Shown here piece by piece: positions 1,642 through 30,868 of a stretch of 64,000 nt of DNA (its first letter is position 1; each line of letters begins with the position of its first letter). The notes beneath the pieces are model-generated. The model made no database searches, was not told the DNA's origin, and saw only the letters and a list, made by a program, of their open reading frames with translations. The DNA lies in the NCBI GenBank assembly GCA_934149245.1, contig CAKPER010000001.1, forward strand, positions 35,236-99,235, read 5' to 3'. Source of the stretch: an uncultured Bacilli bacterium (GTDB lineage: Bacteria; Bacillota_I; Bacilli_A; RF39; UBA660). The position numbers and the translations under genes were made by a program.

Positions 1642-1756
1642 AAGACTCCTCCCTATTACTTGTTAATTGTAACATATTTTTATAAATTTTGACAATGTTT
1701 TTTTAGAAAGTTAATGTAATTTAACCTTTGGTTAAAAAGAAAAAACTAGCCTTTAA

Positions 1757-2737
1757 CTAGTTCTTTCTTGTTTTAGCTTTATATTTATTTTGATCAAGCT
1801 CTCCAGACATACAATTATCTTTAATAGTAATTTTGTAATAGCATAATTTCTTTATGGTATTTATAACATTTAAGATTGTTTCGTTTTGTTTTTTATTATA
1901 CTTTTGAGTTTTACTAGTGGATTCATCGCTAGAGGTATATTTTTGATTTAATTTTTCAAAATCATTATAATTTTCGTCTAAAATATTATTTTTTTTGCTT
2001 TCTATAACATAATTATAAGTTTTATTATTTAATCTATCAACATATTCTAGATATACATTGTCATCTTTCTTAGTATCTGAATCAACTACTAAATTCTTTT
2101 CTTTTTCTCCATCTAATTTACAATAGTCTAAGAATAGAGCAGCTATTGTATCTTCATATATGCTTTTTATTTTTTGAGTGCTATTATAAATATTTTCATT
2201 ACATATTTTAGCATCTGTATTTTTAAGTTTGTTTGCTAAAGATATAAATTTAGTTGTCTCTTCTGTTGGGATATTAGTATCTAACTTTCCATGTTCTATA
2301 TCATTTAGATAAATTTCAAATTGTTTTATATCATTTTTGATTTCTTCTGGTGAAATATTATCTTCATTTGTATCGCTTTGATTATTAGTTGCATAGCGTT
2401 CTAATTCTAAGGAATTAATACGTTCAGATATTTCAATATAATTCTTTATAATATCTAAGTATCTGATTTCTTCTTCAGTTAAGATTTCATCTAAGCAAGT
2501 GCTATTACTAACATTATTTATTATCTTTTTAAAACTATCATTATCAATTTGACTGACTGCTTTATTTTCTGATATTTGTTTTTTTACTTTTCTAGCTCCC
2601 CCAACGATACCAATAGCACCAAGACCTGCTAAGGCTATAATTATCATTCTTGTCTTTAGGTTCTTTATAGATAAACCTTTAGTTCTTTTTTTAGTTTTTT
2701 TATCTTTTTCTAATTTATATTTTTTATTCTTTTCCAT
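1757..2737 (-). CDS. Hypothetical membrane-anchored Lys/Asn-rich protein, probably co-transcribed with the adhesin
   Basis: 326 aa with a single N-terminal TM (IIIALAGLGAIGIVGG). Starts 22 bp after the adhesin stop. No recognisable catalytic motif; it is not a sortase (no TLxTC). Confidence 0.35.
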   Translation of the reverse strand: MEKNKKYKLEKDKKTKKRTKGLSIKNLKTRMIIIALAGLGAIGIVGGARKVKKQISENKAVSQIDNDSFKKIINNVSNSTCLDEILTEEEIRYLDIIKNYIEISERINSLELERYATNNQSDTNEDNISPEEIKNDIKQFEIYLNDIEHGKLDTNIPTEETTKFISLANKLKNTDAKICNENIYNSTQKIKSIYEDTIAALFLDYCKLDGEKEKNLVVDSDTKKDDNVYLEYVDRLNNKTYNYVIESKKNNILDENYNDFEKLNQKYTSSDESTSKTQKYNKKQNETILNVINTIKKLCYYKITIKDNCMSGELDQNKYKAKTRKN

Positions 2738-2759
2738 TTTTATTCTCCTTTAACTTATT

Positions 2760-5700
2760 TTAAATTATTGATTTTTTCTTTCTGATTATTGTAAATGCTC
2801 CTGCTCCTAGGGATAAACTACCGATTACACTTGGAATAGTACTTGCCCATGAGCCAGTATTTTCTACGGTTATTTCTTTACCTGGAGTACTTGGTGCATC
2901 TGGGGTATTAGGTTGTTCTGGAGTGTTTGGAGTCTCAGGTTTATTATACATTACTACTTTGGTTGTAGTTCCATCATCTTTTACAGTGAAAGTTATTGTT
3001 TCATTACTTAATACATAACCATTTGGGGCTACTACTTCATTTAAAGTATAAGTTCCTGGAGTTAAGTTTGTTATTATATGAGGAGTATCTCCTGATGTCC
3101 ACTCGTCTATGACGTTACCATTTTTATCTTTTACTACTAATTTAGCTCCTGGTAATTCTTTACTAGTTGTAACATCTTGTTTACTAATAGATACTTTTGT
3201 TGTTGTATTTGGAGTATTTTTCATAATAACTGTATTTAATTCTTTTCCTGCTTCATCTAATAATTTTCCATCACTTGATACAGTGAATTTTATTGTTTCA
3301 TTACTTAGAATATAGCCATTTGGAGCTTTTGTTTCAGATAAAGTATAACTTCCTTCTACTAGTTCTACATAGTGAGCATTTTTATCGGTAACCCAGCTAT
3401 CTACTACTTTACCATCTTTATCTTTAATTTCTAAACTGGCTCCAGCTAAATTTTCATTAGTTTTAGCATCTATTTTAACAATTGGATATTTCTTTTGCTC
3501 GGGAGTTGGTTTCTTTTCGTTATACATAACAACTTTATCAATAGCTTTATCATCTTTATTTAATAGAGTTCCTTTAGAATCTATTTTGAATGTTATAGTT
3601 TCTTTGGATAATACATAACCATCTGGAGCTATTGTTTCAGTTAGAGTGTAAGTTCCTTCTGGTAGGTCTTTAATAACATGAGCTTCATTTGTAGATACCC
3701 ATGTATCTATAATTTTACCAGTATTGTCTTTTACTTGCAATGTTGCTCCTGGTAATTCTTTACTAGTTGTAATATCTTGCTTACTAATAGTTACATTAGT
3801 TTTTGGTATTGGTTTATTAAACATTACTACTTCTTTTAGAGTATTACCATTACTATCAGTAATTTTACCTGTTTTATCTACAGTAAATTTAATTGAATCA
3901 GTATTTAGAACATAGCCATTTGGAGCTGATACTTCGCTTAAAATATAATTTCCAGCTTCTATATTTTTAATTATATGTTCTTCTGTAGTTGAGGTCCATT
4001 CATCTATAACTACGCCTTTTTCATTTGCTAATTTTAGCTTTGCACCTGATAATTCTTTGTTAGTAGTTATATCTTTTTTACTAATTTTAATATTTTTTTC
4101 TTCATTAGGTTTATTATACATAATTACTTTATCAATAGATTTTCCAGCTTCATCTGTTAATTTACCATCTTTATCTACAGTAAATTTAATAGTCTCTTTT
4201 GATAATATATAACCATCTGGAGCTACTGTTTCAGTTAAGGTATAAGTTCCTGCTTCAATATTTTTTATAATATGAGGCTCGTTTGTAGATATCCATGTAT
4301 CTATAATTTTGTTATCTTTATCTACTACTTTTAGAGAAGCCCCAGGAAGTTCTTTTTTAGTTGTAATATCTTGTTTGCTAATTGTAATATTTTTCTCTTC
4401 ACTAGGTTTATTATACATAACTACTTTATCAATAGATTTTCCAGATTCATCTGTTAATTTACCATCTTTATCTACAGTAAATTTAATAGTTTCTTTTGAT
4501 AATATATAACCATTTGGAGCTACTGTTTCAGTTAGAGTATAAGTTCCAGCTTCAATATATTTTATAATATGAGGCTCGTTTGTAGATACCCATGTATCTA
4601 TAACTTTATTATTCTTATCTTTTACTTGTAATGTTGCACCTGGTAATTCTTTCTTTGTAGTTATATCTTGTTTGCTAATTTCAATATTTCTTTCTTTTTC
4701 TGGAGTGTTATACATAACTACTTTGTCAATAGTTTTACCATTTTTATCAGTTAGTTTGCCATTTTTATCTATTGTGAAACTTATAGTTTCTTTAGATAAT
4801 ACATATCCTTTTGGTGAGATTGTTTCACTTAAAGTATAAGTTCCTGTAGCTAATCCTCTTATTAAATGTTCTTTATCTGTAGATGTCCATTTATCTATAA
4901 CTTTACCATTTTTATCTTTAAGTTCTAGACTTGCTCCTGGTAATTCTTTATTTGTTGTTATATCTTGTTTACTAATTTTAACACTATTTTTAGTGTTTTT
5001 TAATTCTAATTTTGTTACATTAGTACCACTAGTATTTTTTGTATTACCACTAGCATCTACTGTAAATTTAATAGTTTCTTTAGATAAGATGTAGCCATCT
5101 GGTGCTGATACTTCACTTAAAGTATAAGTACCTTGTGCTAAACTTTTTACAGTATGTTCACTTCCATCTGTAGTCCATCTATCTACTTCTTTATTGTTTG
5201 AATCTGTAATTTTTAAGACAGCACCTTTAACAGCAGTCTTAGTGTCGGCATCAATTTTTACTACTTTTGGTGATTTTACGTTAGTTATGGTAATAGAGCT
5301 TACTTTTTGGCCAGATACTTTTATGTTGCCATCGTTATCTATTACAAAAGTTATTTTATTTTTGTTTAAATTATAGCCATTTGGTGCTGATGCTTCTCCT
5401 ACAGTATAAGTACCTGGATTAAGGTTTTTAATAACGTGAGTTGAACCATTAGATGTCCATCTATCTATTACTTTACCACTAGAGTTTTTAGCTTCTATTA
5501 CAGCACCTTTTAAACTAGATTTAGTATTAAAATCAGTCTTATTTACTGGCACATTAACACTAACTTTTTTATTTATTATTAATTTTGCAGTATCTTCAGC
5601 ATTTTTTACAATCTTATAAGTAACAGCCATCTTTTGATATCTACTATTACTTGGATTATAATTTTGTGATTTAATTATTTCTTTAGAGTTACTTACTTTT

Positions 5701-6410
5701 ACTTTTAAAGTTGTCTTTCCAGGTTTAATTTTAGAATCTGGAACATATACATAAATATATTTTCCACTAACTTTATAAGTTGAACCTTTTGGAGCTCCTA
5801 CTAGAGATACTTTAAATTTTTTCTCTGAGCTTGTTACTTTTATTTTTTTAGAAACATAATTATTTCCACTTTTGCTCATTTCACTTTTATCTGGACTTAA
5901 TTTTATACTTGGTCCACTAAAATTAGGCTTTGAAGCTTTCTTAGCATTAGCAACTAAAGTTCTAATTTTTTTAGCAGTTGCAGAATTACTGCTATAAACT
6001 TTGTTTCTGAATTTAGATACAGAATAAGATTTGTTCATTATTCCTTTATCTGACATATAAATCCATAAAGCAGTTTGATATATAAAGAAATCATTATTAT
6101 TTCTTACGTTTTTATAAGCTTGTTTTAAGATATAGTGCTTACCAGCATCATCAACAATATCTGCTTTCGTATATTTAATACCTGTTGATGGTGTTTTTTT
6201 AGCATATGTTATACAATATGCAAATTTTCCACCAGTAGTCTTTTTTACATGAAATGTTTGTGGATAAGACATAGGTGGATTATGATAGCTTGTACTTTTT
6301 ATTGTAACGCTGCTTGCAATGTTTTCAGCATTAACGATAGTTGTTCCGAAAACAATTGTTGCAATTATAGTAAGAATAAAACTTACTAGTAATTTAAAAT
6401 TCTTTTTCAT
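2760..6410 (-). CDS. Surface adhesin: signal peptide + thioester (TQXA/TED) domain + about 9 CnaB-type repeats + C-terminal membrane/wall anchor
   Basis: 1216 aa. Signal peptide MKKNFKLLVSFILTIIATIVFGTTIVNA. The N-terminal domain carries a Cys (KFAYCITYAK) and the QxA(L)W motif (IYQTALWIY) typical of thioester adhesin domains. Nine ~93-aa repeats follow, of the form SKQDITTxKELPGAxLxVKDKNGKVIDxWxST..H.I..L..GTYTL.E..AP.GY.LS.ETI.FTV...G...VVMYNKP (Lys...Glu...Asn, CnaB/isopeptide-like). The C-terminus is ...TPGKEITVENTGSWASTIPSVIGSLSLGAGAFTIIRKKKSII: a hydrophobic span plus a basic tail. Confidence 0.8.
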   Translation of the reverse strand: MKKNFKLLVSFILTIIATIVFGTTIVNAENIASSVTIKSTSYHNPPMSYPQTFHVKKTTGGKFAYCITYAKKTPSTGIKYTKADIVDDAGKHYILKQAYKNVRNNNDFFIYQTALWIYMSDKGIMNKSYSVSKFRNKVYSSNSATAKKIRTLVANAKKASKPNFSGPSIKLSPDKSEMSKSGNNYVSKKIKVTSSEKKFKVSLVGAPKGSTYKVSGKYIYVYVPDSKIKPGKTTLKVKVSNSKEIIKSQNYNPSNSRYQKMAVTYKIVKNAEDTAKLIINKKVSVNVPVNKTDFNTKSSLKGAVIEAKNSSGKVIDRWTSNGSTHVIKNLNPGTYTVGEASAPNGYNLNKNKITFVIDNDGNIKVSGQKVSSITITNVKSPKVVKIDADTKTAVKGAVLKITDSNNKEVDRWTTDGSEHTVKSLAQGTYTLSEVSAPDGYILSKETIKFTVDASGNTKNTSGTNVTKLELKNTKNSVKISKQDITTNKELPGASLELKDKNGKVIDKWTSTDKEHLIRGLATGTYTLSETISPKGYVLSKETISFTIDKNGKLTDKNGKTIDKVVMYNTPEKERNIEISKQDITTKKELPGATLQVKDKNNKVIDTWVSTNEPHIIKYIEAGTYTLTETVAPNGYILSKETIKFTVDKDGKLTDESGKSIDKVVMYNKPSEEKNITISKQDITTKKELPGASLKVVDKDNKIIDTWISTNEPHIIKNIEAGTYTLTETVAPDGYILSKETIKFTVDKDGKLTDEAGKSIDKVIMYNKPNEEKNIKISKKDITTNKELSGAKLKLANEKGVVIDEWTSTTEEHIIKNIEAGNYILSEVSAPNGYVLNTDSIKFTVDKTGKITDSNGNTLKEVVMFNKPIPKTNVTISKQDITTSKELPGATLQVKDNTGKIIDTWVSTNEAHVIKDLPEGTYTLTETIAPDGYVLSKETITFKIDSKGTLLNKDDKAIDKVVMYNEKKPTPEQKKYPIVKIDAKTNENLAGASLEIKDKDGKVVDSWVTDKNAHYVELVEGSYTLSETKAPNGYILSNETIKFTVSSDGKLLDEAGKELNTVIMKNTPNTTTKVSISKQDVTTSKELPGAKLVVKDKNGNVIDEWTSGDTPHIITNLTPGTYTLNEVVAPNGYVLSNETITFTVKDDGTTTKVVMYNKPETPNTPEQPNTPDAPSTPGKEITVENTGSWASTIPSVIGSLSLGAGAFTIIRKKKSII
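2960..5540 (-). repeat. Tandem ~280-bp coding repeats (CnaB-like modules of the adhesin), highly similar at the DNA level
   Basis: Near-identical DNA blocks recur, e.g. 4100-4400 vs 4390-4680. The plus-strand mini-ORFs 3109..3315, 3724..3915 and 4309..4509 all read APGNSLLVV.SCLLI because of this periodicity. Confidence 0.8.
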
Positions 6411-6526
6411 CCCAATTCCTCCCTTAAATTAGCTCCATATTCTATCACTCTTTGTTAACTCTGTCAAGAACTTTTTAAGAATTTATTAGTATTTAAATGA
6501 AGTTATTTTTGGGATAAAATATGGGA

Positions 6527-6562
6527 TAATAAAAAGAACTAGCTGATAAATTGTTAGTTCTT
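6527..6562 (-). terminator. Rho-independent terminator downstream of the AddB-like gene
   Basis: Stem AAGAACTA (6534-6541) / TAGTTCTT (6555-6562) with a 13-nt loop. On the minus strand a T-run (complement of the A-run 6527-6533) follows. Confidence 0.5.
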
Positions 6563-6638
6563 GGAAAAATAAATTACATCTACTTTAAAACTAATAAAAT
6601 TAAGGTAAGAGAAGCTATTATTTTAAATTAAATGAATA

Positions 6639-9023
6639 TTATTCTTCTTTTAAAAATTCCATCTTTTTATATTCTTTTAAGTTAATTATATCTTTCTCAC
6701 TCATAAAACAAATATCTTTGTAAGTACAAAATTGACACCCAATATTATTCATACCTATTCTTTTAGGATTTATAGTAAAATTAGCATTAGTAATCTCGTG
6801 AATAGCATTATCTATTTTAGATTCCGTTATTTGATATAGTTTATCTATTTCATCATCACTTAAGACTTTTTTTGTTCTAAGTCCATTAGAGGTTGTACTC
6901 ATTCCTTTTATTACTTTACTATTTTGATAGTTAGAATCTAGCATTTCTATTAAGCTCTCATCTATATTAGTATAGCCTTGAAGTTTTAAATTATCTTGCT
7001 TTTGTTTTAGATAATCACTTTTGGGATCAGATGAGGGAATAGGATTTATAATTTTTTGAAGATAGAAACCTACTATTCTAATACTTGGAAACTTATTTTT
7101 AAGAAGATAGATATATGTTGGCAATTGTAAATCTAGGCCATGAATAGTATTATTTAAATTAAACTGTGTACTGCCTGTTTTATAATCGATAATAGCAGCC
7201 ATTTGTTCATCGTTATCTAGCATTATTTTATCAATAAATCCTTTAAATACAATTTTCATATCATTAATACTTTTATCTATTTCTACTCTACTTTCATATA
7301 AACTTTTATTTAGACTAGAATAGCTATATTGTTCTTTAATGGTCTCTATAATGAATTTTAGTTCTTCTTTTAAGTTATTTAAGAAAAATAATTCTTTAGC
7401 ATTAAATTTATATTCTTGTTTATCGATGTATCTTTGATAAGTAGTATCAATATCTATATCTTTATCAAAACAAATAGATAATATGTAGTGAAAAAGATTA
7501 CCTAATATAGTCATAAATGTTTCTTCATAAATATTTATATTTAAGATATTAGATAAATAGTATTTAAAACTACAATGATAATAATTATTAATAGCACTAT
7601 AAGATAAGTTAAGGTTATTCTTTAAATATCGTTTTAAAGTTCTAGGATCTATTTTAGTATACTTATTATTATAAGTCATATATTCTATATCTTTATAATT
7701 ATTAAAGAGAACTTCTAATTCTTTAGAGTAAGTATTATATTTTATTAAATTATCAATTTTATCAGTTAATTCTATTTTATTATAAATGTTAGAATAGTTG
7801 TATTCTTTTTGAGGAATCTCTTGCTCTAGTTTTAAGATATCGTTTAGACTAGATAAGTAATAGTCCCCTGTTAAACTATGGGTTTTATAAGTTATAATTA
7901 GATTTTTAGTGTGCTTTATATCATCAAGCCATTTAGCATGATTTTGATTATTTATATCATTAGAGGTATCTAAATTTAATTTGCTTTTTAAAGAATCACT
8001 AAGATAATCTTCATCTTTTATTGTTTGAGGAATTTGACCTTGATTAAAATTCATAAGAAATACATAATCGCTCTGAGATGCATCACTTAAATTATCTAAT
8101 ATTTCTACTTTAGAAGATAAGTTTTCTTTATTAATTATTTGATTTTTGAAGTCATTTATTAATAATGGTTTTATTTCTAGGTAACTATTGCACCAAGTAT
8201 ATTTATTTAAGATATTAATAATTTTATTGTATATGTCTAGGATATGCTCATCTTCTAAATTATAATTTTCTTCTATAAATGATAAGGTACTAGTTATATC
8301 ATCATCTAAGTGAGATAAGAAGTCTTTAGCAATTTTTGTTGCATAAAGTTTACTTGTATTAAAGGTAATAGGAATATTAAACATTTTAAATATTCTAGAT
8401 ATTGCTATATTATATTCACTATTTATGCCACATATTTTTATGTTATTTATATCTATACCATCAATTACTAATTTACAAATAGATGTTGCAACAAAGACAA
8501 TTTCATCTTCTAGAGAGTTTAGTTTATAAATTTTATTATGGTGGTATTCTTCTTTGGTGTTACTATACATTAAAATATTAGCTTTTGTTTCTTTTTTTAT
8601 TTCTTCTATTAGATTTTGATAAAACTTAGAAAGATATTTATTATTATAGATAATTATATTTTTATGTTGAAGAAAATCTTTAAAAAGTGGTGTATAGTAA
8701 AGTAATTTAGCACTATCTAACTCTTTTTTTAGTTTTTTTAGATGTATAATTTTAGGATCATTTATATCACTAGCAAAATATAAGTAATATAAATTATTTA
8801 AATACTTATTAGCTACATCATAGGTAAAATCATATTTTTTCATTAAATAAAGATGAGCTTTTTCATCATACTTAAAATAAAAATTTTCTTTTAAATCATT
8901 TAGAGTCATAAATTTTATATTTAGTAAACTTTTGCTACTACACTCTTCAATTACTTTTACTTTTTGTTTTTGGCTTGGATTTAATATTAATATGTCATTA
9001 TCTTTTAGTTTATCTATAATCAT
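6639..9023 (-). CDS. AddB/RexB-like PD-(D/E)XK nuclease with Cas4/AddB-type Fe-S Cys cluster (shortened; no addA neighbour)
   Basis: 794 aa. C-terminal domain has YYHCSFKYYL (first Cys), GFIDKIM (motif II Asp), IIDYKTGS (motif III D-x-K) and terminal CQFCTYKDIC (Cx2Cx5C): the iron-staple nuclease layout of AddB/Cas4. No Walker A in the N-terminal 500 aa. Confidence 0.5.
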   Translation of the reverse strand: MIIDKLKDNDILILNPSQKQKVKVIEECSSKSLLNIKFMTLNDLKENFYFKYDEKAHLYLMKKYDFTYDVANKYLNNLYYLYFASDINDPKIIHLKKLKKELDSAKLLYYTPLFKDFLQHKNIIIYNNKYLSKFYQNLIEEIKKETKANILMYSNTKEEYHHNKIYKLNSLEDEIVFVATSICKLVIDGIDINNIKICGINSEYNIAISRIFKMFNIPITFNTSKLYATKIAKDFLSHLDDDITSTLSFIEENYNLEDEHILDIYNKIINILNKYTWCNSYLEIKPLLINDFKNQIINKENLSSKVEILDNLSDASQSDYVFLMNFNQGQIPQTIKDEDYLSDSLKSKLNLDTSNDINNQNHAKWLDDIKHTKNLIITYKTHSLTGDYYLSSLNDILKLEQEIPQKEYNYSNIYNKIELTDKIDNLIKYNTYSKELEVLFNNYKDIEYMTYNNKYTKIDPRTLKRYLKNNLNLSYSAINNYYHCSFKYYLSNILNINIYEETFMTILGNLFHYILSICFDKDIDIDTTYQRYIDKQEYKFNAKELFFLNNLKEELKFIIETIKEQYSYSSLNKSLYESRVEIDKSINDMKIVFKGFIDKIMLDNDEQMAAIIDYKTGSTQFNLNNTIHGLDLQLPTYIYLLKNKFPSIRIVGFYLQKIINPIPSSDPKSDYLKQKQDNLKLQGYTNIDESLIEMLDSNYQNSKVIKGMSTTSNGLRTKKVLSDDEIDKLYQITESKIDNAIHEITNANFTINPKRIGMNNIGCQFCTYKDICFMSEKDIINLKEYKKMEFLKEE

Positions 9024-9641: not shown

Positions 9642-11400
9642 CTTTCTGTCTCCTTTTATTATTTTCTTCCTGAAGTTTTTTGAAGTCGACTTTACCTACT
9701 ATTGTTTTAGGTAGAGATTTTCTAAATTCATATTCGTATACTTGAGAATATTTAGGAAGATTTTTTTTGCATAGTGCTTTTAATTCTTCTATTAATTCAT
9801 CACTTTGCTTATATCCTTTATTTAAGACTATGAAGGCTTTAGGAACTTCCATTTTATATTTATGAGATATTCCTACTACACTGCATAACATTACTGCTTC
9901 ATGTGATTCTAGGAGTTGCTCTATTTGATTAGGATAAACATTATATCCAGATGAGATAATTAATCTTTTTAATCTACTGGTATATTTAATGAAACCATCT
10001 TTATCCATTGTTCCAAGATCACCAGAATGAAGCCAAATGTTACCGTCATCATGGATATGAAGAGCTAGATTTGTTTCTTTAATGTTATTGTAATATCCTA
10101 GCATTACATTAGGACCACTTATACATATTTCACCTTCCTCGCCGTAAGGAACTTCCTCATCCTCTGGTGAAAAGATACCTATATAACAGCCTGGGAACGG
10201 AATACCTACAGAAGAAGTTTTAGGAATGCTCTTTAATCCTAAGCAAACTGCGGCTAAAGATTCACTCATTCCATATCCTTGCAATATTCTTGTATTAGCT
10301 CCATGCTCATGAAGAAAGGTATTAATCTTATTCTCCATTGAGGCTTTTAAAGTGTCACCTCCTGATATTACATATTTTAAATAGCTTAATTCTAAAGATT
10401 TGCTATTAGGATTTTTCATTAGAGCTTCAAATAAAGTTGGTACACCTATTACAAATTCTGGTTTATGTTTATTTAATAATTTATCAAATTCCATACCATT
10501 AAATTTAGGAAGTAATATAACTTCAGCTCCTAAACACAAAGGAGTGTAGACACAGACTCCTAGACCAAAGCCGTGAAAAATTGGCATAATGGCTAGACAT
10601 TTATCACCGATAGTTAATTCGTCAAAGACAATTCTTGATTGTTCTACTAGAGTAATAAAGTTGCCGTTAGATAAAACTATAGCTTTAGGGGTTCCAGTTG
10701 AACCTCCACTATGAATCATAACAGCTGGATTATTTTTAAGGCCATGTTTTTTAGGTGGGATTGGTCTTGTAAAATCAGTATTTTTGGGTTCTTTAATGAA
10801 ATCATTCCAAGTAGAATAAAGATTTATTTTCTTTGGTATTTTATATTTATATCCTTCTTTTAAATGGTAAGCAACATTCATTGGGAAAGGCATAGAATTT
10901 CCTGGAGATACTACTACTACTTTTAAAACTTCAGTGTCTTTAATTATTGCTCTTACTTTATCCAAATCAAGATCAACTGTTACTATCATAATGCTTTTAG
11001 TTTCTACTAAAGTATTTTTTATCTCGTTTTCACTAGATAAGGGGTGAATCATATTACAAATTGCTCCTAATTTATTTAGGGCTAGAAAGGATATTACTCC
11101 TTCTGGGGTATTAGGCATACAAATTGTTACTACGTCTCCATATCTTATACCATAATATTTAAAACTCATTGCACATTCATCTACTTTATTTAAAAGGCTT
11201 TGATAAGTTATTCTTGTACCATAATAATTTATGGCACATTTACTTGAATATTTATAGCTATTTTCCTTAAAATTTTCATATAAAGAAGTATCTGGTATGT
11301 CTAAATCCATCTCTTTAGGCGAATAATATTTGCTCCAAGGAGCATTAGGTTTCTTTTTAAAACCTAAGAATCTAAAAAATTTCATATTAAATATTCCCAT
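9625..11400 (-). CDS. AMP-dependent acyl-CoA/acyl-ACP synthetase (long-chain fatty acid ligase, FadD/Aas C-domain-like)
   Basis: 591 aa; AMP-binding signature IHSGGSTGTPKA, plus later GYGMSE and GDLG motifs. Overlaps both flanking acyltransferase genes, so operon. Confidence 0.8.
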   Translation of the reverse strand: MGIFNMKFFRFLGFKKKPNAPWSKYYSPKEMDLDIPDTSLYENFKENSYKYSSKCAINYYGTRITYQSLLNKVDECAMSFKYYGIRYGDVVTICMPNTPEGVISFLALNKLGAICNMIHPLSSENEIKNTLVETKSIMIVTVDLDLDKVRAIIKDTEVLKVVVVSPGNSMPFPMNVAYHLKEGYKYKIPKKINLYSTWNDFIKEPKNTDFTRPIPPKKHGLKNNPAVMIHSGGSTGTPKAIVLSNGNFITLVEQSRIVFDELTIGDKCLAIMPIFHGFGLGVCVYTPLCLGAEVILLPKFNGMEFDKLLNKHKPEFVIGVPTLFEALMKNPNSKSLELSYLKYVISGGDTLKASMENKINTFLHEHGANTRILQGYGMSESLAAVCLGLKSIPKTSSVGIPFPGCYIGIFSPEDEEVPYGEEGEICISGPNVMLGYYNNIKETNLALHIHDDGNIWLHSGDLGTMDKDGFIKYTSRLKRLIISSGYNVYPNQIEQLLESHEAVMLCSVVGISHKYKMEVPKAFIVLNKGYKQSDELIEELKALCKKNLPKYSQVYEYEFRKSLPKTIVGKVDFKKLQEENNKRRQKDEKEN

Positions 11401-11403
11401 ATT

Positions 11404-12021
11404 TTACCTACTTTCTTTTTTACTTAATTCACTACTAATTATATTCATTAGTTTGTTATTTTCACAAGTTAAATCGTTATTTTTAGTATTTATTTTATAA
11501 GGTTTATAAAATTCGATTATAACACTTTTTCGAAATAGTTTATATTTATTTTTTATAGTAAATGGTACTAAGCTAGCATTAGTTTCACTAGCCATCTTTA
11601 CAGCCCCTATTTTAAAGGGCATGATGATATCTTTGGTTTTGTTTATAGTACCTTCAGGAAATATGCCTATTAGAGCATCTTTATTTAGGACGTCAATAGC
11701 CTTATTTAAAGCATTTTTATCGTGGATACTTCTATTTACAGGTATTATTCCCATGTTGGTAAATATAGGCTTTTTGATTCCTTTAATTAGGCTATCTTTT
11801 GCTAAAAAATGGATAGTTCTTTGGGTTGACGATATTAATAATAAACAATCTAAGTTGCTAGTATGGTTTCCTACTAAAATACATCTTTTTTCTTTTGGAA
11901 TGTTATTTAGTCCTTTGTAGGTTGGTCTAAAAGTTATATCAAAGAGAAACTTAATTATTGGTCTAGTTATTTTATATAAAATTGGTTCTTTCAAATTTAT
12001 CCTTCTTTCTTTAAATATCAA
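11404..12021 (-). CDS. PlsC-like lysophospholipid acyltransferase (second paralog)
   Basis: 205 aa; GNHTSNLDCLLL (HxxxxD) and IFPEGTINKTKD motifs. Confidence 0.75.
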   Translation of the reverse strand: MIFKERRINLKEPILYKITRPIIKFLFDITFRPTYKGLNNIPKEKRCILVGNHTSNLDCLLLISSTQRTIHFLAKDSLIKGIKKPIFTNMGIIPVNRSIHDKNALNKAIDVLNKDALIGIFPEGTINKTKDIIMPFKIGAVKMASETNASLVPFTIKNKYKLFRKSVIIEFYKPYKINTKNNDLTCENNKLMNIISSELSKKESR

Positions 12022-12154
12022 GTTAATGATATCATATTTATACTAGTTTGGCAATTAACACATATATAAATTTAGGAGTAGCGATAGTTATTATTTTTAG
12101 TAAAATAAAAGATTTTTTTTAATATTACATTAGTAGTAAACTTTATAAATTTTT

Positions 12155-12193
12155 AGAAAAAAAGAAAAAACACTTAAATTAATTAAATGTTTT
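12155..12193 (-). terminator. Rho-independent terminator after the deacetylase gene
   Basis: Minus-strand hairpin AAAACA-TTAA / TTAA-TGTTTT with one mismatch, followed by a TTCTTTTTTTC run. Confidence 0.4.
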
Positions 12194-13626
12194 TAATTAT
12201 TAATACGATGGACAATTTGAGGAGTATCTAGGGTTATATTAGAAAATTGATAACCGTTAGATTTTCCATATTTAATGATTGCTCTTAGAGCATTTAAGGT
12301 ATAATAGTTATTTTCAAAATCGTGCATTAGGACCATATTTACTCTATTATGTTTTAAATTATTTATAACATTGTTATATACCTCATTACTCGAGTGAACA
12401 CCACCAGCATCTTCTGATGAAATGTTCCAGTCGTAATATTTATAGCCTTTTTTTCCTACTTCACTAGCTAAATAACTCATAACACCACTTGTATATCTTT
12501 TACTTATAGTATTAGAACTCCCTCCAGGAAATCTTATAATTTTACTATTAATACCAATAATATTTTTTACTTTATTAGACATTTTTTCAAGATCATCTAT
12601 GTAAGCATTATTACTTGAATATATTGTTTGATAGTTATGAGTGTAACTGTGAAGGCCTACAGTATGTCCCTCATCATATTCTCTTTTTATTAAGTAATTT
12701 AAACTATCATCATGATTTATTACAAAGAATGTAGCTTTGATGTCTTCAGACTTTAAAATATCTAAAATTTGACTAGTTACGGTTTTGCTTGGCCCATCAT
12801 CAAAGGTTAGATAGATGACACTATTGGTTGTTGTATTGTTGACCATTACGTTTATTGTTCTCTCAACAGCAGTTACATTACCACTACTATCACTTACTTT
12901 ATAAGTTATTTTATATATACCAATTTTAGAAGTATCAACAGAGCCACTTACTTCTACTTTACTAGTTAAATTACCATCACAGTTATCTAGAGCTTCGTAG
13001 CCAGGATCTCTAAAAGTAGAATTTAGATAAAGATTCATATAATTATAACCATTTAATTTAATAATTGGAGCTTCTTTATCTTCTCTTATTAACTCTCTTG
13101 TTTTAACTGTTCTATTGCCAAAAGTATCTTCAACAATATAATTAATTTTATCTTTTTCAAGGTTAGTTATTACTTTTTTAGTTAAGTTGCCATCATAATT
13201 ATCAAATGCTTCATAGCCTTCTTCTTTGTATGAATCATTTGGACATAACCTTACTTCCTTACTACCAATTAATTTTAATGTTGGAGGTTTACTATCAATT
13301 ACTTTTACGGTTCTTGTTTTTTTTACATCAAAAATTAAATATTTTATTTTATAATTTACTTGATAAGAACCAATTTTTTTAGGATTAATATTATTTGATA
13401 CTTCTACATTATTAGTTATATCTTTATTTAAAACATAGGATTTATATCCTGGTTCAGTATAGCCTTTATTGACTTCAATTGTCATATCTTTATTATTTGT
13501 TAAATATAGTTTAGGTGTTAATACTATGCAAGCTATGAATGTTATTAGGGCTATTATTCCTAAAACTATAATGGCAATTATTATTATTTTTTTATGTTTG
13601 TTTTTCAGTTTGTACTTCCTGTTCAT
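12193..13626 (-). CDS. Membrane-anchored polysaccharide deacetylase (NodB-homology domain) with two Ig-like domains
   Basis: 477 aa; N-terminal TM; two repeated ~90-aa Ig-like segments (LIGSKEVRLCPNDSYKEEGYEAFDNYDGNLT / LNGYNYMNLYLNSTFRDPGYEALDNCDGNLT); NodB motifs IYLTFDDGP and GHTVGLHSYTH. Confidence 0.75.
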   Translation of the reverse strand: MNRKYKLKNKHKKIIIIAIIVLGIIALITFIACIVLTPKLYLTNNKDMTIEVNKGYTEPGYKSYVLNKDITNNVEVSNNINPKKIGSYQVNYKIKYLIFDVKKTRTVKVIDSKPPTLKLIGSKEVRLCPNDSYKEEGYEAFDNYDGNLTKKVITNLEKDKINYIVEDTFGNRTVKTRELIREDKEAPIIKLNGYNYMNLYLNSTFRDPGYEALDNCDGNLTSKVEVSGSVDTSKIGIYKITYKVSDSSGNVTAVERTINVMVNNTTTNSVIYLTFDDGPSKTVTSQILDILKSEDIKATFFVINHDDSLNYLIKREYDEGHTVGLHSYTHNYQTIYSSNNAYIDDLEKMSNKVKNIIGINSKIIRFPGGSSNTISKRYTSGVMSYLASEVGKKGYKYYDWNISSEDAGGVHSSNEVYNNVINNLKHNRVNMVLMHDFENNYYTLNALRAIIKYGKSNGYQFSNITLDTPQIVHRINN

Positions 13627-25790: not shown

Positions 25791-25801
25791 ACTGTTATGG
25801 T

Positions 25802-26403
25802 ACTAATAATTCATCCCCTATATTTATTAAGTTTGAAGTTAAATTGTTTAAACTTTTTATTTTATCTACTGTTGTATTATATTTTTTAGCAATACTGTAT
25901 AAGCTATCTCCTGATACTACTTTATAAGTTTTTGTGCTAGATGTATTGCTAGGAAGTTTTAATATTTGACCTATACTTAGAATTTTTGAATCTAAGTTAT
26001 TTAAACTTTTTATTTTATCTACTGTTGTATTATATTTTTTAGCAATACTGTATAGGTTATCTCCTGATACTACTTTATAGGTTTTTGTACTAGATGTATT
26101 GGTGTCATTAGGAAGTTTTAATATTTGACCTATACTTAGAATATTGGACTCTAAGTTATTTAAACTTTTTATTTTATCTACTGTTGTATTATATTTTTTT
26201 GCAATACTGTATAAGCTATCTCCTGATACTACTTTATAAGTTTTGACATTAGAATTAGTTTCTTCTGTATTACTAGATGAAGTTGGGATTTTTAAACTAC
26301 TACCTATAGTTAGATTATTAGAAGTTAGGTTGTTATATGCTTTTAGTTTATCTACAGTAGTATTATATTTTCCAGCTATACTATATAAAGTATCACCTGA
26401 TAC
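25802..26403 (-). CDS. 3' segment of a split gene: four-and-a-half LysM repeats (C-terminal part of the Amidase_3-LysM protein)
   Basis: No start codon of its own, so absent from the ORF track. Minus-strand translation reads (S)GDTLYSIAGKYNTTVDKLKAYNNLTSNNLTIGSSLKIPTSSSNTEETNSNVKTYKVVSGDSLYSIAKKYNTTVDKIKSLNNLESNILSIGQILKLP...IGDELLVP and stops at 25802-25804. It is in frame with the 5' segment at 30078..30868 through the shared codons TCA-GGK-GAT (S-G-D). Confidence 0.75.
25830..26400 (-). repeat. Tandem ~150-bp coding repeats (LysM modules)
   Basis: Four near-identical DNA blocks (ttgaagttaaattgtttaaactttttattttatctactgttgtattatattttttagcaatactgtataagctatctcctgatactactttataag...). They are coding, not CRISPR. 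Confidence 0.8.
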
Positions 26404-26420
26404 AATTTTTATGCAACATT
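26380..26420. other. Left junction (attL-like) of the intervening element
   Basis: ...ctatataaagtatcaCCTGATACaatttttatgcaac... The host LysM sequence diverges after CCTGATAC (26396-26403); the element arm GATACAATTTTTATG is an inverted copy of the right-end arm. Confidence 0.65.
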
Positions 26421-27974
26421 TTTAAATGTAAATATAATATCTATCGTTTTATCTTGATAGATATAAATCTTTTCAATTAAATTTATAATTAATTCTCTAG
26501 TTGGATTTTCAAGTGATAAAAATTCATTTATATATTTTTCTATTTGTTTGTTATCTATTTTATTTTCTTCTATTTGTTCATTTTTAAGATTATCAATTTT
26601 CTTTTTATTATTATCTATTTCAGTTTTAATATTTTCACTTACTCTTAAGTATTGTTCTTCATCAATAATACCTTTTAATCTATCCATATATGTTTTATCT
26701 AGACTTTCAGTTAATTTATTATTTGTTATCTCTAAACTTTCAATTTGTTTTTTTATCTTTAAACTATTATCTTCAAACTTTATATTATTAATAGATTCTT
26801 TTATCTTGTTTTTATCTAAATACTTTTTACATACATCCCTTATATTATCTAAAATAACATTTTCTAATACTTCATAATTATTTGTATGGGTTGTACAGAC
26901 ATGATATTTTGAATATGTTCTATAATAATCACAAGTAGTATAACTTCTTTCTGTCTTATTTTGGTATCTAATTGTAATTCTGTGTTTACAATCCCCACAA
27001 TATAAAAGTCCATCTAATAAGTAAAATCTTTTTTTCTCTGGCCTTTTAACATTTTTAGGTAAAAGTGTTTGTACATAATTAAATGTACTCTTGTCAATAA
27101 TTGCCTTGTGTGTGTTTTCTACTATTATGTAATCATCTGGACTATTTTTAACCGTTTTCTTTAGTTTATAATTAATCTTTTTATTCTTACCTTGTACTGC
27201 ATCACCTGTATAAATTCTATTAGTTAAAATTGCCTTTATAGTAGTATCTACCCATACTCCATATTCTTGTGATATACAATTATTATTTATACATTTTGTA
27301 TTCCATATATAGTTATAATAAGATGCTGGTGTTTTTATTTTTCTTTTAGTAAGTTCTTGAGCAATATAATGATATGTATTACCTTTAAGTGCTAAATCAA
27401 ATATTAATTTAACAACACTTGCTTGCTCAACATTCACTACTAAATGATTCTTATTAGTTGGATCTTTCATATACCCAAATGGACATCTTCCTGATACATA
27501 TAAGCCATCTTTCATTCTTGAATGCAAACTACTTTTAATTTTTTTAGAAATATCTTTGGCATACATATCATTCATTATGGCTTTAAAAGGTGCAATATCA
27601 TTATTTGTATTGTCTATAAAAGTATCTATACCATCATTAATAGCAATATATCTAATATTATTATTTGGAAAAAATTTTTCTATTAATTCTCCAGTACCTA
27701 TATAATCTCTACCTAATCTAGACATATCTTTAGTAATAATCATATTGATTTTGCCTAATTCAATATCTTTCATCATTCTCTTAAATGATGGTCTATCAAA
27801 ATTAGTTCCAGAAAATCCATCATCTACATATTCATCAACTACTATATAATTGTTTTCTTTTACATATTGGTTAAGTAAACTTCTTTGACTAACAATACTA
27901 TCAGATTCTACATTCCCATCATCTCTTGATAATCTTATATAAAGTCCTACTTTAAAACTACTATTCCCTACCAT
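26409..27974 (-). CDS. Large serine recombinase (SpoIVCA/SprA/TnpX-type site-specific recombinase)
   Basis: 521 aa; N-terminal resolvase catalytic domain VGLYIRLSRDDGNVESDSIVSQRSLLNQY with the nucleophile Ser; recombinase domain; Cys-rich zinc ribbon (YCGDCKHR...CDYYRTY...HVCTTH); C-terminal coiled-coil (KKIDNLKNEQIEENKIDNKQIEKY). The stop lies 5 bp from the element end. Confidence 0.9.
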   Translation of the reverse strand: MVGNSSFKVGLYIRLSRDDGNVESDSIVSQRSLLNQYVKENNYIVVDEYVDDGFSGTNFDRPSFKRMMKDIELGKINMIITKDMSRLGRDYIGTGELIEKFFPNNNIRYIAINDGIDTFIDNTNNDIAPFKAIMNDMYAKDISKKIKSSLHSRMKDGLYVSGRCPFGYMKDPTNKNHLVVNVEQASVVKLIFDLALKGNTYHYIAQELTKRKIKTPASYYNYIWNTKCINNNCISQEYGVWVDTTIKAILTNRIYTGDAVQGKNKKINYKLKKTVKNSPDDYIIVENTHKAIIDKSTFNYVQTLLPKNVKRPEKKRFYLLDGLLYCGDCKHRITIRYQNKTERSYTTCDYYRTYSKYHVCTTHTNNYEVLENVILDNIRDVCKKYLDKNKIKESINNIKFEDNSLKIKKQIESLEITNNKLTESLDKTYMDRLKGIIDEEQYLRVSENIKTEIDNNKKKIDNLKNEQIEENKIDNKQIEKYINEFLSLENPTRELIINLIEKIYIYQDKTIDIIFTFKNVA

Positions 27975-28171
27975 TAATTACAACTCCCTTCCATTTGGGA
28001 ATAATGAGTATGATTACATGGTAGCTCCCTATCTAAATAATTGCAAGTCATGTTCAATTTCTTTTGTAATTCTATTTTCAATACTTCAGTTATTATTTCA
28101 TTTAAAGATTTAGAATTATCTTTAAACTTTAAATTAACTTTGTATTTAACCATAGAGTTTAATACCTCCAA
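27974..28171 (-). CDS. Small ORF (65 aa) translationally coupled to the recombinase start: candidate recombination directionality factor or regulator
   Basis: Good RBS (GGAGGTATTAAACTCTATG); its stop overlaps the recombinase ATG; 4 Cys in the C-terminal half (CNYLDRELPCNHTHYSQMEGSCN). No family assignable from sequence. Confidence 0.3.
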   Translation of the reverse strand: MEVLNSMVKYKVNLKFKDNSKSLNEIITEVLKIELQKKLNMTCNYLDRELPCNHTHYSQMEGSCN

Positions 28172-28610
28172 TTAATTCTATGGTTTTAATTTTTGTAATA
28201 TTACTTGGTATGATTCTCACATACCCAATAATATTACTTAATTTCATAATCCTCCTTATTCATAAACATCATCTCCTTTTACTTGGATGATACCTCTCTT
28301 AAAATGTATGAGTCAAGTCATTTACTATAGCAAGTTTTGTCTATCATCCCAAAATGATTCATAATTTAATAAAATATGAAATAGCAGGATAAGAAGATGG
28401 TGTAATAGCACGCGCTTTTCCTTATAAAATAAGGACTTGTGTATACACCATTCTTATTTCGTACTTACGAAATTCAACCTACAAAATAGATTTATATATA
28501 GGATGATTATTAAACAAGTCTTTATATTATAAGACATTAGAACAATAAAAAAACATCCTACTATCTAATTTTCGTTAGATTTTATAGGATGACTTTTTTA
28601 TTTATTATTA

Positions 28611-28832
28611 TTATTCATTTAAGTACTTTTCCATTATTGATGCTATTAATGCTTTAGATTCAGGCAGTAACTCATTTATTTTATAAGGATAACTTGTATC
28701 TGCTTTACTAATAATGGTTTGTTTTAATTCTTCTGGTATTTTATCAATTAAATCTTTGCTAAGCCTAATTAATGTCATATAGACTTCTGTATATATTTTT
28801 CTTTCTCTATCCATACTATAAACTCCTTCCAT
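28611..28832 (-). CDS. Hypothetical 73-aa protein (element cargo)
   Basis: ORF overlapping the 3' end of the 380-aa cargo gene; a bidirectional hairpin plus T-run (28551-28605) follows it. Confidence 0.3.
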   Translation of the reverse strand: MEGVYSMDRERKIYTEVYMTLIRLSKDLIDKIPEELKQTIISKADTSYPYKINELLPESKALIASIMEKYLNE

Positions 28833-29958
28833 TACTTCTAGATGGAAACTGACTAAGCATTTCTTGAGCCTTTAATAAAAATTCCATATCTAAATCATTT
28901 AATTTTCTTATACAATCCTGTATCGTCATTTTCCTTTGTTTTGAAGCTTCGCTCACTTTAAATCTAGGTAATATCGGTGATAAATTAACACATGATAAAA
29001 CTTCAGGATTAACAACCTTATCACAACAGATGTTATCTCCCATTAACATACTACCTCCCTTAACTATGTCAGAAAATATATAATTTTCATTTGAATAAAG
29101 GGAATTATCACTCATTGATGAAAAATAGAAACTTTTCATTCTATTTATATCATCATTATCTTCCAACGAACTAATTGGTACAAATGCTAAATAAGGTTCT
29201 GTATTGCCAAATTTATTCCAACATTTATTAAAAAAATCCAAAATTTCTTTTCTATCTTCTTCACTCATGTTATTTTTTTCAATCAATTTTGTTATTGTTA
29301 AAAGACAGGTTTCATAATCTCTGTTTGCATAACCATGTTTATTCTCTTCTGGTACCAATCCCCATGCATAGCAATGGTTGCCTCCACAGAATTGTCCAAA
29401 CCATTCAGGGGAATCAGCATAATGTAACATACTGTGTGGATTACTATCGTAAAACCAACCATTTTTTTCATTTTTGATATCTAATGTTCCCCAACCTAAA
29501 GGATTATCATTACCATATTTACTATAAATTGAAGCAATATGCATAAGTTCCATCTTATTTTCTTGTGAAGATTGTGAAAATCCAAGTCCATATTTCATAT
29601 TATTTTCTATTGCCTTACTATTTCCAGCATGAAAAACATAACCATTTCTAACAAAATTTTCAAAAGCATAACTAATAATAGCTTCTATTTTACTATCAAT
29701 TTCATGATGTGGAATTCCTATTTTATCAGCAATTCTTAATTTTAAAAATTGAATTTGTTGTTTTTCATCAGTTAAGTGCATATATTCTTCAATGCCTTCT
29801 GATTCTTTAAACAAAACACAATAGCCAATCATTCTAGAAAAATTTTTCTCTTGCAATTCTTTTTCATCATATGTCATTTCTCTTTTTTTCATAAAATAAT
29901 ATTGGATTAAAGCATTATTTAAGCATTCAGATATAATTTTTCCAATATCAATATTCAT
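28816..29958 (-). CDS. Hypothetical 380-aa cytoplasmic protein (element cargo), His/Trp/Cys-containing, no recognisable family
   Basis: Long ORF with codon usage like the host; contains NPLGWGTLD, HYADSPEWFGQFCGGNHCYAWG and GDNICCDKV segments. No TM or signal peptide. Confidence 0.4.
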   Translation of the reverse strand: MNIDIGKIISECLNNALIQYYFMKKREMTYDEKELQEKNFSRMIGYCVLFKESEGIEEYMHLTDEKQQIQFLKLRIADKIGIPHHEIDSKIEAIISYAFENFVRNGYVFHAGNSKAIENNMKYGLGFSQSSQENKMELMHIASIYSKYGNDNPLGWGTLDIKNEKNGWFYDSNPHSMLHYADSPEWFGQFCGGNHCYAWGLVPEENKHGYANRDYETCLLTITKLIEKNNMSEEDRKEILDFFNKCWNKFGNTEPYLAFVPISSLEDNDDINRMKSFYFSSMSDNSLYSNENYIFSDIVKGGSMLMGDNICCDKVVNPEVLSCVNLSPILPRFKVSEASKQRKMTIQDCIRKLNDLDMEFLLKAQEMLSQFPSRSNGRSL

Positions 29959-30054
29959 TTTATCATCTTCTTCCTTATTATAAATTAATACAGTTTTATT
30001 CTATACATTTTAATTATACCATGTTTCTTTATTATTTTATTAAAAAATACTCAT

Positions 30055-30095
30055 TATTCCCCATAAAAATGGTATCCCCTGATACTACTTTATAA
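30055..30095. other. Right junction (attR-like) of the intervening element
   Basis: ...tcattattccCCATAAAAATGGTATCCCCTGATACtactttataag...; the host LysM sequence resumes at CCTGATAC (30078-30085). Confidence 0.65.
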
Positions 30096-30868
30096 GTTTT
30101 GACATTAGAATTAGTTTCTTCTGTGTTACTAGATGAAGTTGGGATTTTTAAGCTACTACCTATAGTTAGATTATTAGAAGTTAGGTTGTTATATGCTTTT
30201 AATTTATCTACAGTAGTATTATATTTTCTAGCTATACTATATAAAGTATCACCAGATTTCACTTTATAATATATTCCATTAGTTGGCTTGGAAGATGCAA
30301 TATTTAAATAGCTTAAAATAGCTTCTACTACAGCATCACCTAAATCACTTACATTATTGTTTATGATATTAAAATCATTAGTATTATTAGGGTTACCATA
30401 ATATATAATTAGAGTTTCATTATTTTTTGTATCCCTAATTAAAGGATTATAATCTAAGGAAGTATCACTGGGAAGTCTTCTTTGGTAATATTTATTTACT
30501 TTTATATTTTTAGATTTAAAACTGTTTGCAAGTGTTTCTGCTAGATTTCTTGTATTTCTGAGAGCATATACTATTTGAATTCCTTCTTCATCAGGAGATA
30601 AAGCATTTGATATTACTATCACATCATTTCCACTTCCGTAAAGGGATTTTATTTTATTAGTTCTATCTTCTATACTTAGAGTTTCATCATTATTTCTGGT
30701 TAAAGATACAGGAATATTTTTTTCTTTTAGTTTATCATAGATATATTTGCTAATTTCTAAATTAAAATCTTTTTCTATCAAATTATCTTTTGTTTTCCCT
30801 ATATCATCACCACCACGATATGGATCTATTACGATCTTTTTAGAGGATATTCGATCAAATTCACACAT
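30078..30868 (-). CDS. 5' segment of the split gene: degenerate Amidase_3 (MurNAc-L-Ala amidase-like) domain + first LysM repeat + start of the second
   Basis: The ORF track shows 30032..30868 because translation reads through the junction into the element (..KTYKVVSGD|TIFMGNNEYFLIK*). The N-terminus MCEFDRISSKKIVIDPYRGGDDIGKT aligns to the Amidase_3 IVIDPGHGGxDxGA motif but with His->Arg. LTRNNDETLSIEDR is conserved. The SIHANA motif is replaced by VISNAL, so the second His is lost. No signal peptide. Confidence 0.7.

Follow-up and report, generated by a model that had tools for sequence, protein, structure and literature searches.

A probable small integrative element with a TnpX/TndX-like recombinase that targets LysM-coding DNA in uncultured gut Bacilli

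A stretch of 64,000 nt from an uncultured Bacilli bacterium (contig CAKPER010000001.1, positions 35,236 to 99,235; hereafter the window) contains an insert of 3,682 bp at 26398–30079 that interrupts a minus-strand gene with Amidase_3 and LysM domains. In all likelihood this region is a small integrative mobile element that targets the DNA encoding the start of LysM domains. It is based upon a conserved half, comprising a leader, an open reading frame (ORF) of 59 aa and a TnpX/TndX-like recombinase of 521 aa, together with a swappable cargo half. Coordinates in the window are given for the + strand, and CC on that strand is GG in the orientation of the gene.

In the mechanism proposed here the recombinase would recognize the palindromic joined ends of the element (attP, CATAAAAATTGTATC-NGGN-GATACAATTTTTATG). 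Strand exchange would occur at the central GG with DNA encoding the LysM start Y-x-V-x-x-G-D-[TS]-L-x-x-I-A, where GG would provide the first two bases of the codon for the invariant glycine of the motif. The anatomy, the att sites, the natural empty site and the LysM targeting of the family are evident from the sequences. We infer that the recombinase is active and catalyses both integration and excision, and that the element has a means of passing between cells.

Boundaries of the element within the amidase gene

The interrupted gene starts at 30868, is broken just past 30080, resumes at 26397 and ends at 25795, all on the minus strand. It encodes an N-acetylmuramoyl-L-alanine amidase that carries LysM repeats at its C terminus (Pfam Amidase_3, E = 5.7e-19; LysM, E = 2.5e-18). 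The 5′ part (30032–30868, minus strand) encodes the Amidase_3 domain and LysM unit 1, and then continues as a tail of 14 aa (DTIFMGNNEYFLIK, followed by a stop) that is translated from the end of the element. The 3′ remainder (25795–26221, minus strand) encodes LysM units 3–5 and the stop codon. Each of the downstream units starts with an unoccupied LysM-motif site, with GG at 26223, 26064 and 25911. The insertion costs only the distal LysM repeats; the truncated amidase retains the catalytic domain and one LysM unit, and its gene is probably still functional. No record of the exact truncated protein was found by database look-up.

At the left-hand junction (attL, 26387–26413) the host half-site AAAGTATCA passes through the crossover dinucleotide CC (26396–26397) into the element arm TGATACAATTTTTATG. 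At the right-hand junction (attR, 30062–30095) the element arm CATAAAAATGGTATCC is followed by CC (30078–30079) and the host half-site TGATACTACTTT. The latter junction is present in six metagenome contigs of the same species (L001, L003, L004, L010, L013 and L015), taken from a set recovered by exact-protein look-ups. Joining the two ends of the element generates CATAAAAATGGTATC-CCCT-GATACAATTTTTATG, or CATAAAAATGGTATCCCCTGATACAATTTTTATG when written as a continuous attP junction. As the initial annotation of this region had described, the arms are related by dyad symmetry, matching at 14 of 15 positions around CCCT (or 14/16 counted around CC). Symmetry of at least 12/16 is reached at only 16 of 63,920 positions in the window, and a repeat search also found the attP arms, as the inverted repeat I4 (26389–26413 and 30062–30086; 25 nt, 84% complementary).

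The predicted unoccupied site (attB) is AAAGTATCA-CC-TGATACTACTTT, giving AAAGTATCACCTGATACTACTTT on restoration. This too had been described as a palindrome, though an imperfect one. The symmetry is perfect in the inner 7 + 7 nt only, with 8/16 overall, and symmetry of at least 7/10 is found at ~1% of positions in the window. Nor is it a property of the family of related elements described below. Across ~40 related insertions the symmetry of attP is constant, with a mean of 14.1/16, while that of attB has a mean of 4.4/16, which is the chance level. The attB of the window is an outlier because of the particular codons used for V-V-S-G-D-T. The sequence common to both junctions is CCTGATAC, the shared 8 bp noted at the outset, and the agreement extends to 13 of the 14 positions of GTATC[A/C]CCTGATAC.

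The position of the crossover is defined by comparison of the junctions of the family. The spacer in 41 non-redundant pairs of ends (including those of the window and of one conspecific contig) is NGGN, with GG invariant in 41/41. Among 42 pairs of junctions GG is the sole base pair of the spacer that is always common to both, the base on its left differing in 20 and that on its right in 27. The overlap that is exchanged is thus GG alone (bases one and two of the glycine codon), in agreement with the CC core originally suggested. Read in the LysM frame, the arms of the element encode I-K-I-V-S-G and G-D-T-I-F-M-G, so that attP itself mimics the start of a LysM domain.

A natural unoccupied site exists in the same species. 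In the conspecific contig L009, which lacks the element, the start of the second LysM unit agrees with the predicted attB throughout 62 nt, except for one haplotype single-nucleotide polymorphism (SNP) located 21 bases from the core. This fixes the boundaries of the element, and the restored site is therefore a real allele. The junctions, the domains of the recombinase and this empty site together support the earlier proposal that the element is bounded by the attachment sites of a large serine recombinase.

A junction of the attP type also occurs naturally, as CATAAAAATTGTATC-AGGA-GATACAATTTTTATG within a tandem array in L043. There (9946–13125) a full element is followed directly, at the attP-type junction, by a derivative of 1.6 kb that has no recombinase. 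The derivative, which still has the two arms, a pair of small cargo ORFs and the final ~120 bp of the recombinase gene, is thus a non-autonomous element.

Site-specific excision by the recombinase is supported indirectly by these features, namely an intact recombinase, exact att sites and an attB allele that occurs naturally. Precise excision at CC would restore an open gene encoding an amidase of 463 aa with five LysM units. As computed from the window, recombination between the direct repeats that flank the element (see below) would instead generate an in-frame gene of 405 aa with four units. The two routes differ by one LysM unit, as had been anticipated.

Two different elements occupy this position in the species. 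L001, L003 and L004 carry the 3.68-kb element of the window, while L010, L013 and L015 carry a relative of 6.0 kb at the same position (~1410–7420), the recombinase of which is 87% identical to that of the window. Its cargo is different, and encodes a protein of 518 aa, a RhuM-type candidate defence protein (PDC-S05, E = 1.8e-149) and a protein that weakly matches Peptidase_M9. Many conspecific strains carry no element, and the empty alleles have three, four or five LysM units.

Repeated LysM DNA might be expected to mislead an assembler, so that the repeat–element–repeat structure would be an artefact or a chimera. Breaks at these repeats do occur in metagenome assemblies: the contigs of L002 and L098 end inside or at the element, and those of L013 and L016 contain runs of N. 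Yet at least six assemblies, obtained independently and with two different elements among them, show the same structure, and the SNPs that separate the two copies of the repeat are consistent across assemblies. An artefact is therefore extremely improbable.

Related elements in LysM-coding DNA

The initial annotation overlooked that the att site is a conserved LysM-motif coding sequence, and that the element belongs to a family with many targets. A scan of genomes representing GTDB species gave at least 445 stretches encoding relatives of the recombinase, of which the best 80 were kept. Most of those kept are 77–95% identical to the recombinase of the window, with nine (L088–L096) at only 55–59%. 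The hosts are nearly all uncultured gut Bacilli, ‘Tenericutes’, Mycoplasmatota or Erysipelotrichaceae metagenome-assembled genomes (MAGs), and comprise dozens of species. About 46 of these GTDB loci gave paired ends of an element with no more than two mismatches per end, lying 1.6–7.9 kb apart.

The ends of the elements lie in LysM-coding DNA. In other GTDB species the recombinase-side end is followed by an in-frame GD[TS]L..IA in 64/68 cases, and the far end is preceded by Y.V.. in 47/49. When the two flanks are rejoined, all 41 restored sites encode, in frame, the beginning of a LysM domain (..Y-x-V-x-x-G-D-[TS]-L-x-x-I-A..), for which the consensus DNA is TATACAGTAAAAAAAGGAGATACATTATGGAGTATTGC. 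A Pfam LysM domain was found in each of the 26 restored target proteins tested. The targets otherwise vary; the catalytic partner may be Amidase_3, PG_binding_1, Peptidase_M23 or GH25, or there may be none, and the unit that carries the insertion ranges from the first to the fifth. The LysM motif recurs in many cell-wall proteins, and within one protein, so that there are many landing sites in many hosts.

The most direct comparison is with L002. The protein sequence of its recombinase is identical to that of the window, and the DNA of the element is 98.5% identical, but the insertion lies in another gene, adjoining proS, in the last of its LysM units (2065–2205). The sequence departs from that of the window immediately past GG, and there is no match between the flanks of the two outside the element and LysM DNA. 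The contig of L002 breaks inside the element. That of L098 ends exactly at an element arm and is thus uninformative.

The family is very abundant, judged from database matches. More than 5,164 protein clusters (at 90% identity) match the recombinase at E ≤ 1e-100, none of which is informatively named. Literature searches gave no description of LysM targeting by a serine recombinase. Targeting of LysM by this family is thus apparently undescribed, although the targeting of a domain motif is itself already a known idea.

Several observations weigh against an interpretation as a mobile element that homes to LysM-coding DNA. The recombinases of 55–59% identity do not adjoin LysM DNA, and four of the 68 recombinase-side ends fall outside LysM. 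Because the search for relatives relied upon similarity in the recombinase and in the ends of the element, elements whose ends have diverged are under-represented. Neither an excised circle nor an isolated attP was found; the attP pattern gave zero matches in JGI metagenomes and IMG/VR, and the tandem array of L043 has the only attP-type junction seen. Finally, no mobilization or transfer gene is recognized in the element in Pfam, PHROG or NCBIfam.

Only two contigs in IMG/VR have an end of the family. These (L099, 11156–11177; L100, 927–948) are 39.5 and 56 kb in length, and each carries an element of the family, again in a LysM motif. The contigs may be true prophages or host DNA; in the former case, phage genes with LysM could provide the element with a vehicle from cell to cell. 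In L064 two ends of the family (116–530 and 5831–6250) adjoin the same stretch of 398 bp, made up of LysM-coding DNA and the DNA downstream of it, beyond which the two sequences are no longer alike. The shared 398 bp could be a host flank that was carried along with the element, or could belong to paralogous target genes.

The interruption of a cell-wall hydrolase gene by an element with a large serine recombinase, and the restoration of the frame by precise excision, recall the skin-type elements of SpoIVCA and its relatives. The element might then be a developmentally excised intervening sequence, like the skin of sigK, that restores the amidase at a set stage such as sporulation. However, skin-type elements have one dedicated target each, while the present family has many targets and a variable cargo, with two different elements at the same site in this species. 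Truncation leaves the gene with its catalytic domain and a LysM unit, and many strains are without the element. The amidase meets no NCBIfam equivalog cutoff and is far below that of CwlD in particular (43 bits, with a cutoff of 221). Moreover the hosts, gut MAGs with the labels uncultured Bacilli, Tenericutes or Mycoplasmatota, presumably do not sporulate. Developmental excision is thus very improbable.

For an element that inserts into a LysM motif, homing to the coding sequence of a ubiquitous domain would explain how so small an element has spread through many species and genes with little harm. The dozens of natural attB variants used with one attP provide a ready-made map of specificity for a target of ~30 bp, which should be useful for the engineering of integrases. 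The insertions also introduce variation, previously unnoticed, into the cell-wall hydrolases of uncultured gut Bacilli.

The duplicated LysM unit

The element of the window is flanked by direct repeats (repeat family D2) of 185 nt, located at 26217–26401 and 30073–30257, that are 97% identical with six mismatches. The first copy corresponds to LysM unit 2 (the 174-bp unit 26222–26395), and its right-hand end forms the core of attL. The second copy comprises LysM unit 1 (the 174-bp unit 30080–30253) and the shared boundary bases, and its left-hand end forms the core of attR. Units 1 and 2 are identical at 170 of 174 positions (98%). Units 3 and 4 are 91% identical, and all other pairs 53–71%. 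The near-identical LysM repeats flanking the element that had been remarked upon are thus real, although the coordinates given for the second copy (30078–30255) were a few bases off. These repeats (~186 bp as first described) are not a feature of the element but neighbouring LysM units of the host with the element located exactly at their boundary. Most relatives lack them; in related insertions the flanks are mostly 68–87% alike or unrelated, and near-identical flanks are confined to this species and L051. Nor is there a target-site duplication at every insertion, most having no flanking duplication. The 96%-identical flanks of L051 were considered as a second duplication linked to an element, and rejected because the gene concerned has four units that are all nearly identical.

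The initial annotation could be read as describing a dedicated single-site element, with both att sites palindromic and with the 186-bp repeats a part of its biology that provides a RecA-dependent route of excision. The anatomy of the att sites and the CC core agree with this. Recombination between the repeats leaves the in-frame 405-aa gene, and single-unit empty alleles exist with the same downstream architecture (P0004 and L016). Furthermore, the chimeric haplotype of a unit in L009 shows that the units recombine. Excision by RecA between the repeats, in frame and with one unit lost, is formally possible. Its products would resemble the common single-unit alleles such as P0004 and L016, but these are indistinguishable from alleles that never carried the element. 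The family occupies dozens of different genes, the symmetry of attB is at the chance level family-wide, and the only other near-identical flanks, in L051, are in a gene where all four units are alike. A dedicated single-site element is unlikely on these grounds, and insertion at LysM starts in general is preferred.

The arrangement of the repeats does require an explanation, however. In every occupied allele of the species the duplicated unit flanks the element on both sides, while in most empty alleles it is present as a single copy. L009 is empty yet has both copies. The allele of the window is a mosaic; unit 1 has the haplotype found in single-unit alleles (L007), and unit 2 with the downstream array is like that of L016 and P0004. 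When the upstream flank of unit 1 (..AAATCT-GG-TGATAC..) is compared with the start of unit 3 (..GTATCA-GG-AGATAG..) in the single-unit alleles, GG is all that they have in common at the position of the duplication junction. Elsewhere in the unit there are in-register runs of identity of 12, 9, 9 and 7 bp, and GG makes up just 2 of the 114 identical positions. The duplicated segment is thus bounded on both sides by the crossover dinucleotide of the recombinase. Homologous recombination between units 1 and 3 is unlikely because they are only ~70% identical.

It is quite possible, though tentative, that the recombinase itself created the duplication of the LysM unit. Insertions would first arise on sister or co-resident chromosomes, one at the LysM-motif site that opens unit 1 and one at the adjacent site that opens the next unit. 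The repeat–element–repeat structure would then follow from recombination inside the element, or from recombination between the junctions of the two sites, and subsequent excision would leave the amidase allele with one LysM unit more, as is found in L009. Two junctions would be expected within the amidase under this model, one of AAAGTGAAATCTGG with GGATACCATTTTTATG and the other of CATAAAAATTGTATCAGG with AGATAGYTTATACAG. No insertion at a site of the unit-3 type was found in the metagenome scan. If the model is correct, an element that targets a domain motif would expand and contract arrays of domain repeats at precise unit boundaries, providing a site-specific route for the evolution of modular proteins. 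It raises the idea that whole domain repeats may be gained or lost in this manner through site-specific recombinases.

Alternatively the LysM unit might have been duplicated by ordinary tandem-repeat expansion before the element arrived, merely making a good landing site, and this is a serious contender that falls a little short of probable. The conspecific amidase alleles L007–L016 (~6465–7862) contain from three to six or more LysM units, with crossovers at differing points inside units of 51–53 aa that are 91% identical, as in homologous recombination. The LysM array is thus highly recombinogenic independently of the element. The existence of an empty allele with the duplication (L009) is expected for a duplication that came first, and the presence of two diverged elements at the same junction fits a preferred attB. 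Yet the duplicated unit and its neighbour are only ~70% identical. The junction falls within 2 bp of identity despite the longer runs available, and this GG is the exact crossover of the recombinase on both sides.

Recombinase, cargo and comparison with known elements

The recombinase gene (26409–27974, minus strand) encodes a large serine recombinase of 521 aa, and its stop codon falls within the terminal arm of the element. It contains the N-terminal catalytic domain of the resolvases (PF00239, 1.7e-22), the Recombinase domain (PF07508, 4.3e-22) and a zinc-ribbon (PF13408, 5.8e-10), and matches an integrase in PHROG (1e-105). No DUF4368 was detected, even at E ≤ 10. The best match among solved structures is the catalytic domain of TnpX (2mhc, E = 2.5e-28), where the sequence LYIRLSRDD is aligned to LYERLSRDD. 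This is the catalytic serine motif LYxRLSRDD, in which the role of the serine is established for large serine recombinases. The best named plasmid match is TndX, with 35% identity over 98% of the protein. By these PDB and plasmid matches TnpX and TndX appear to be the closest relatives of the recombinase.

Overlapping the start of the recombinase gene there is a conserved ORF of 59–65 aa (27974–28171, minus strand; called as 59 aa) that is kept in ~95% of related elements. It has no family match in Pfam, PADLOC, PHROG or NCBIfam, and is possibly a regulator or directionality factor. Upstream lies a non-coding leader of the recombinase operon of ~430 bp (28172–28610, minus strand). The leader is kept in ~70–77% of related elements with 66–88% identity, and is conserved in ~30 elements from different species. 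Its features are a hairpin followed by a run of T (~28560–28605), a conserved promoter-like sequence TTGACT-18-TATCAT (28316–28287), and two short ORFs with strong ribosome-binding sites. Promoter-like matches are unenriched in this AT-rich region, 57 being found compared with 46.9 ± 5.8 in shuffled sequence, barely above expectation. No terminator passed a GC-rich filter. The leader has no match in Rfam; at gathering thresholds the whole window gave one tRNA only, with zero matches inside the element.

The conservation among relatives is limited to this recombinase module, roughly 26398–28600, while the cargo region (28610–30030) is common to ~4%. The cargo includes a small ORF of 67–73 aa (28611–28832, minus strand) that is called as a gene of 67 aa in L001, L003 and L004, and has no family match in Pfam, PADLOC, PHROG or NCBIfam. 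The main cargo gene (28816–29958, minus strand) encodes a protein of 380 aa with 64 unannotated relatives, in which many aromatic, histidine and asparagine positions are invariant (e.g. F109, H110, N113 and S114). It has no match in Pfam, PHROG or NCBIfam, and its sole match in PADLOC is weak, to a type II methyltransferase (E = 8.4e-4, 16.9 bits). The protein gave a confident structural model (predicted local distance difference test 87.5, predicted template modelling score 0.82), for which a Foldseek search of the PDB found no match (best E about 1). The element contains no phage structural, replication or lysis genes, the recombinase being the sole PHROG match in its 3.7 kb.

Beside the far arm of the element there is a conserved subterminal 15-mer (30047–30061) that is a perfect complement of 27997–28011, the two forming the inverted repeat I15 (GGGAATAATGAGTAT / ATACTCATTATTCCC). 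The partner copy lies ~35 nt upstream of the recombinase start codon, and is conserved there in 27 of 44 related elements. The repeat shows no covariation, and may act as RNA or as DNA.

The closest precedent for the targeting of a domain motif is provided by Tn5397, a conjugative transposon of Clostridioides difficile, and its large serine recombinase TndX. Tn5397 targets DNA encoding the Fic domain, which is found in many proteins, and has a GA central dinucleotide (PMC4430133), compared with LysM and GG in the present family. By the title of one reference, TndX is needed, and suffices, for both integration and excision. Tn5397 is a conjugative element of 21 kb, with two preferred sites reported per genome. 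The present elements are of 3–8 kb with no recognized transfer genes, and occupy dozens of genes and species.

Tn4451 and Tn4453, with the recombinase TnpX, are likewise small elements (~6 kb) that depend upon a large serine recombinase, and their insertion sites are similar to the joined ends of the transposon. Tn4451 has a GA core and carries a Mob protein (TnpZ) with an origin of transfer (oriT), and tnpX is located at the end where the joint of the circle forms its promoter. In the present element it is the 3′ end of the recombinase gene that adjoins the end of the element; GG forms the core, and a defined coding motif serves as the target. No mobilization gene or relaxase with oriT of the Tn4451 type was found and neither cargo ORF matches a model in Pfam, PHROG or NCBIfam, though the element may carry an unrecognized oriT.

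Durrant et al. (2022; PMC10083194) described clusters of recombinases that integrate into many clusters of target genes, some of which were suggested to have evolved to target sequences present at multiple sites. Most (63%) of that multi-targeting clade has DUF4368, and the motifs are AT-rich around a TT core. The recombinase in the window differs in having no detected DUF4368, and its motif is a coding sequence of ~30 bp. The terms LysM, PF01476, peptidoglycan and amidase are absent from the supplementary files of that study that were searched.

A second variable region lies near the element, upstream of scpA, where the strains differ (L007, L008 and L011, 1–3300; L009 and L001, 1–3600). One type contains an arylsulfotransferase and a 380-aa gene; the latter, seen in L007, was considered as a relative of the cargo and rejected, since it is unrelated to the 380-aa cargo of the element. 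The second type, which includes that of the window strain, contains genes for an AAA_14/DUF4143 protein, a SPASM protein and a PEP-utilising enzyme.

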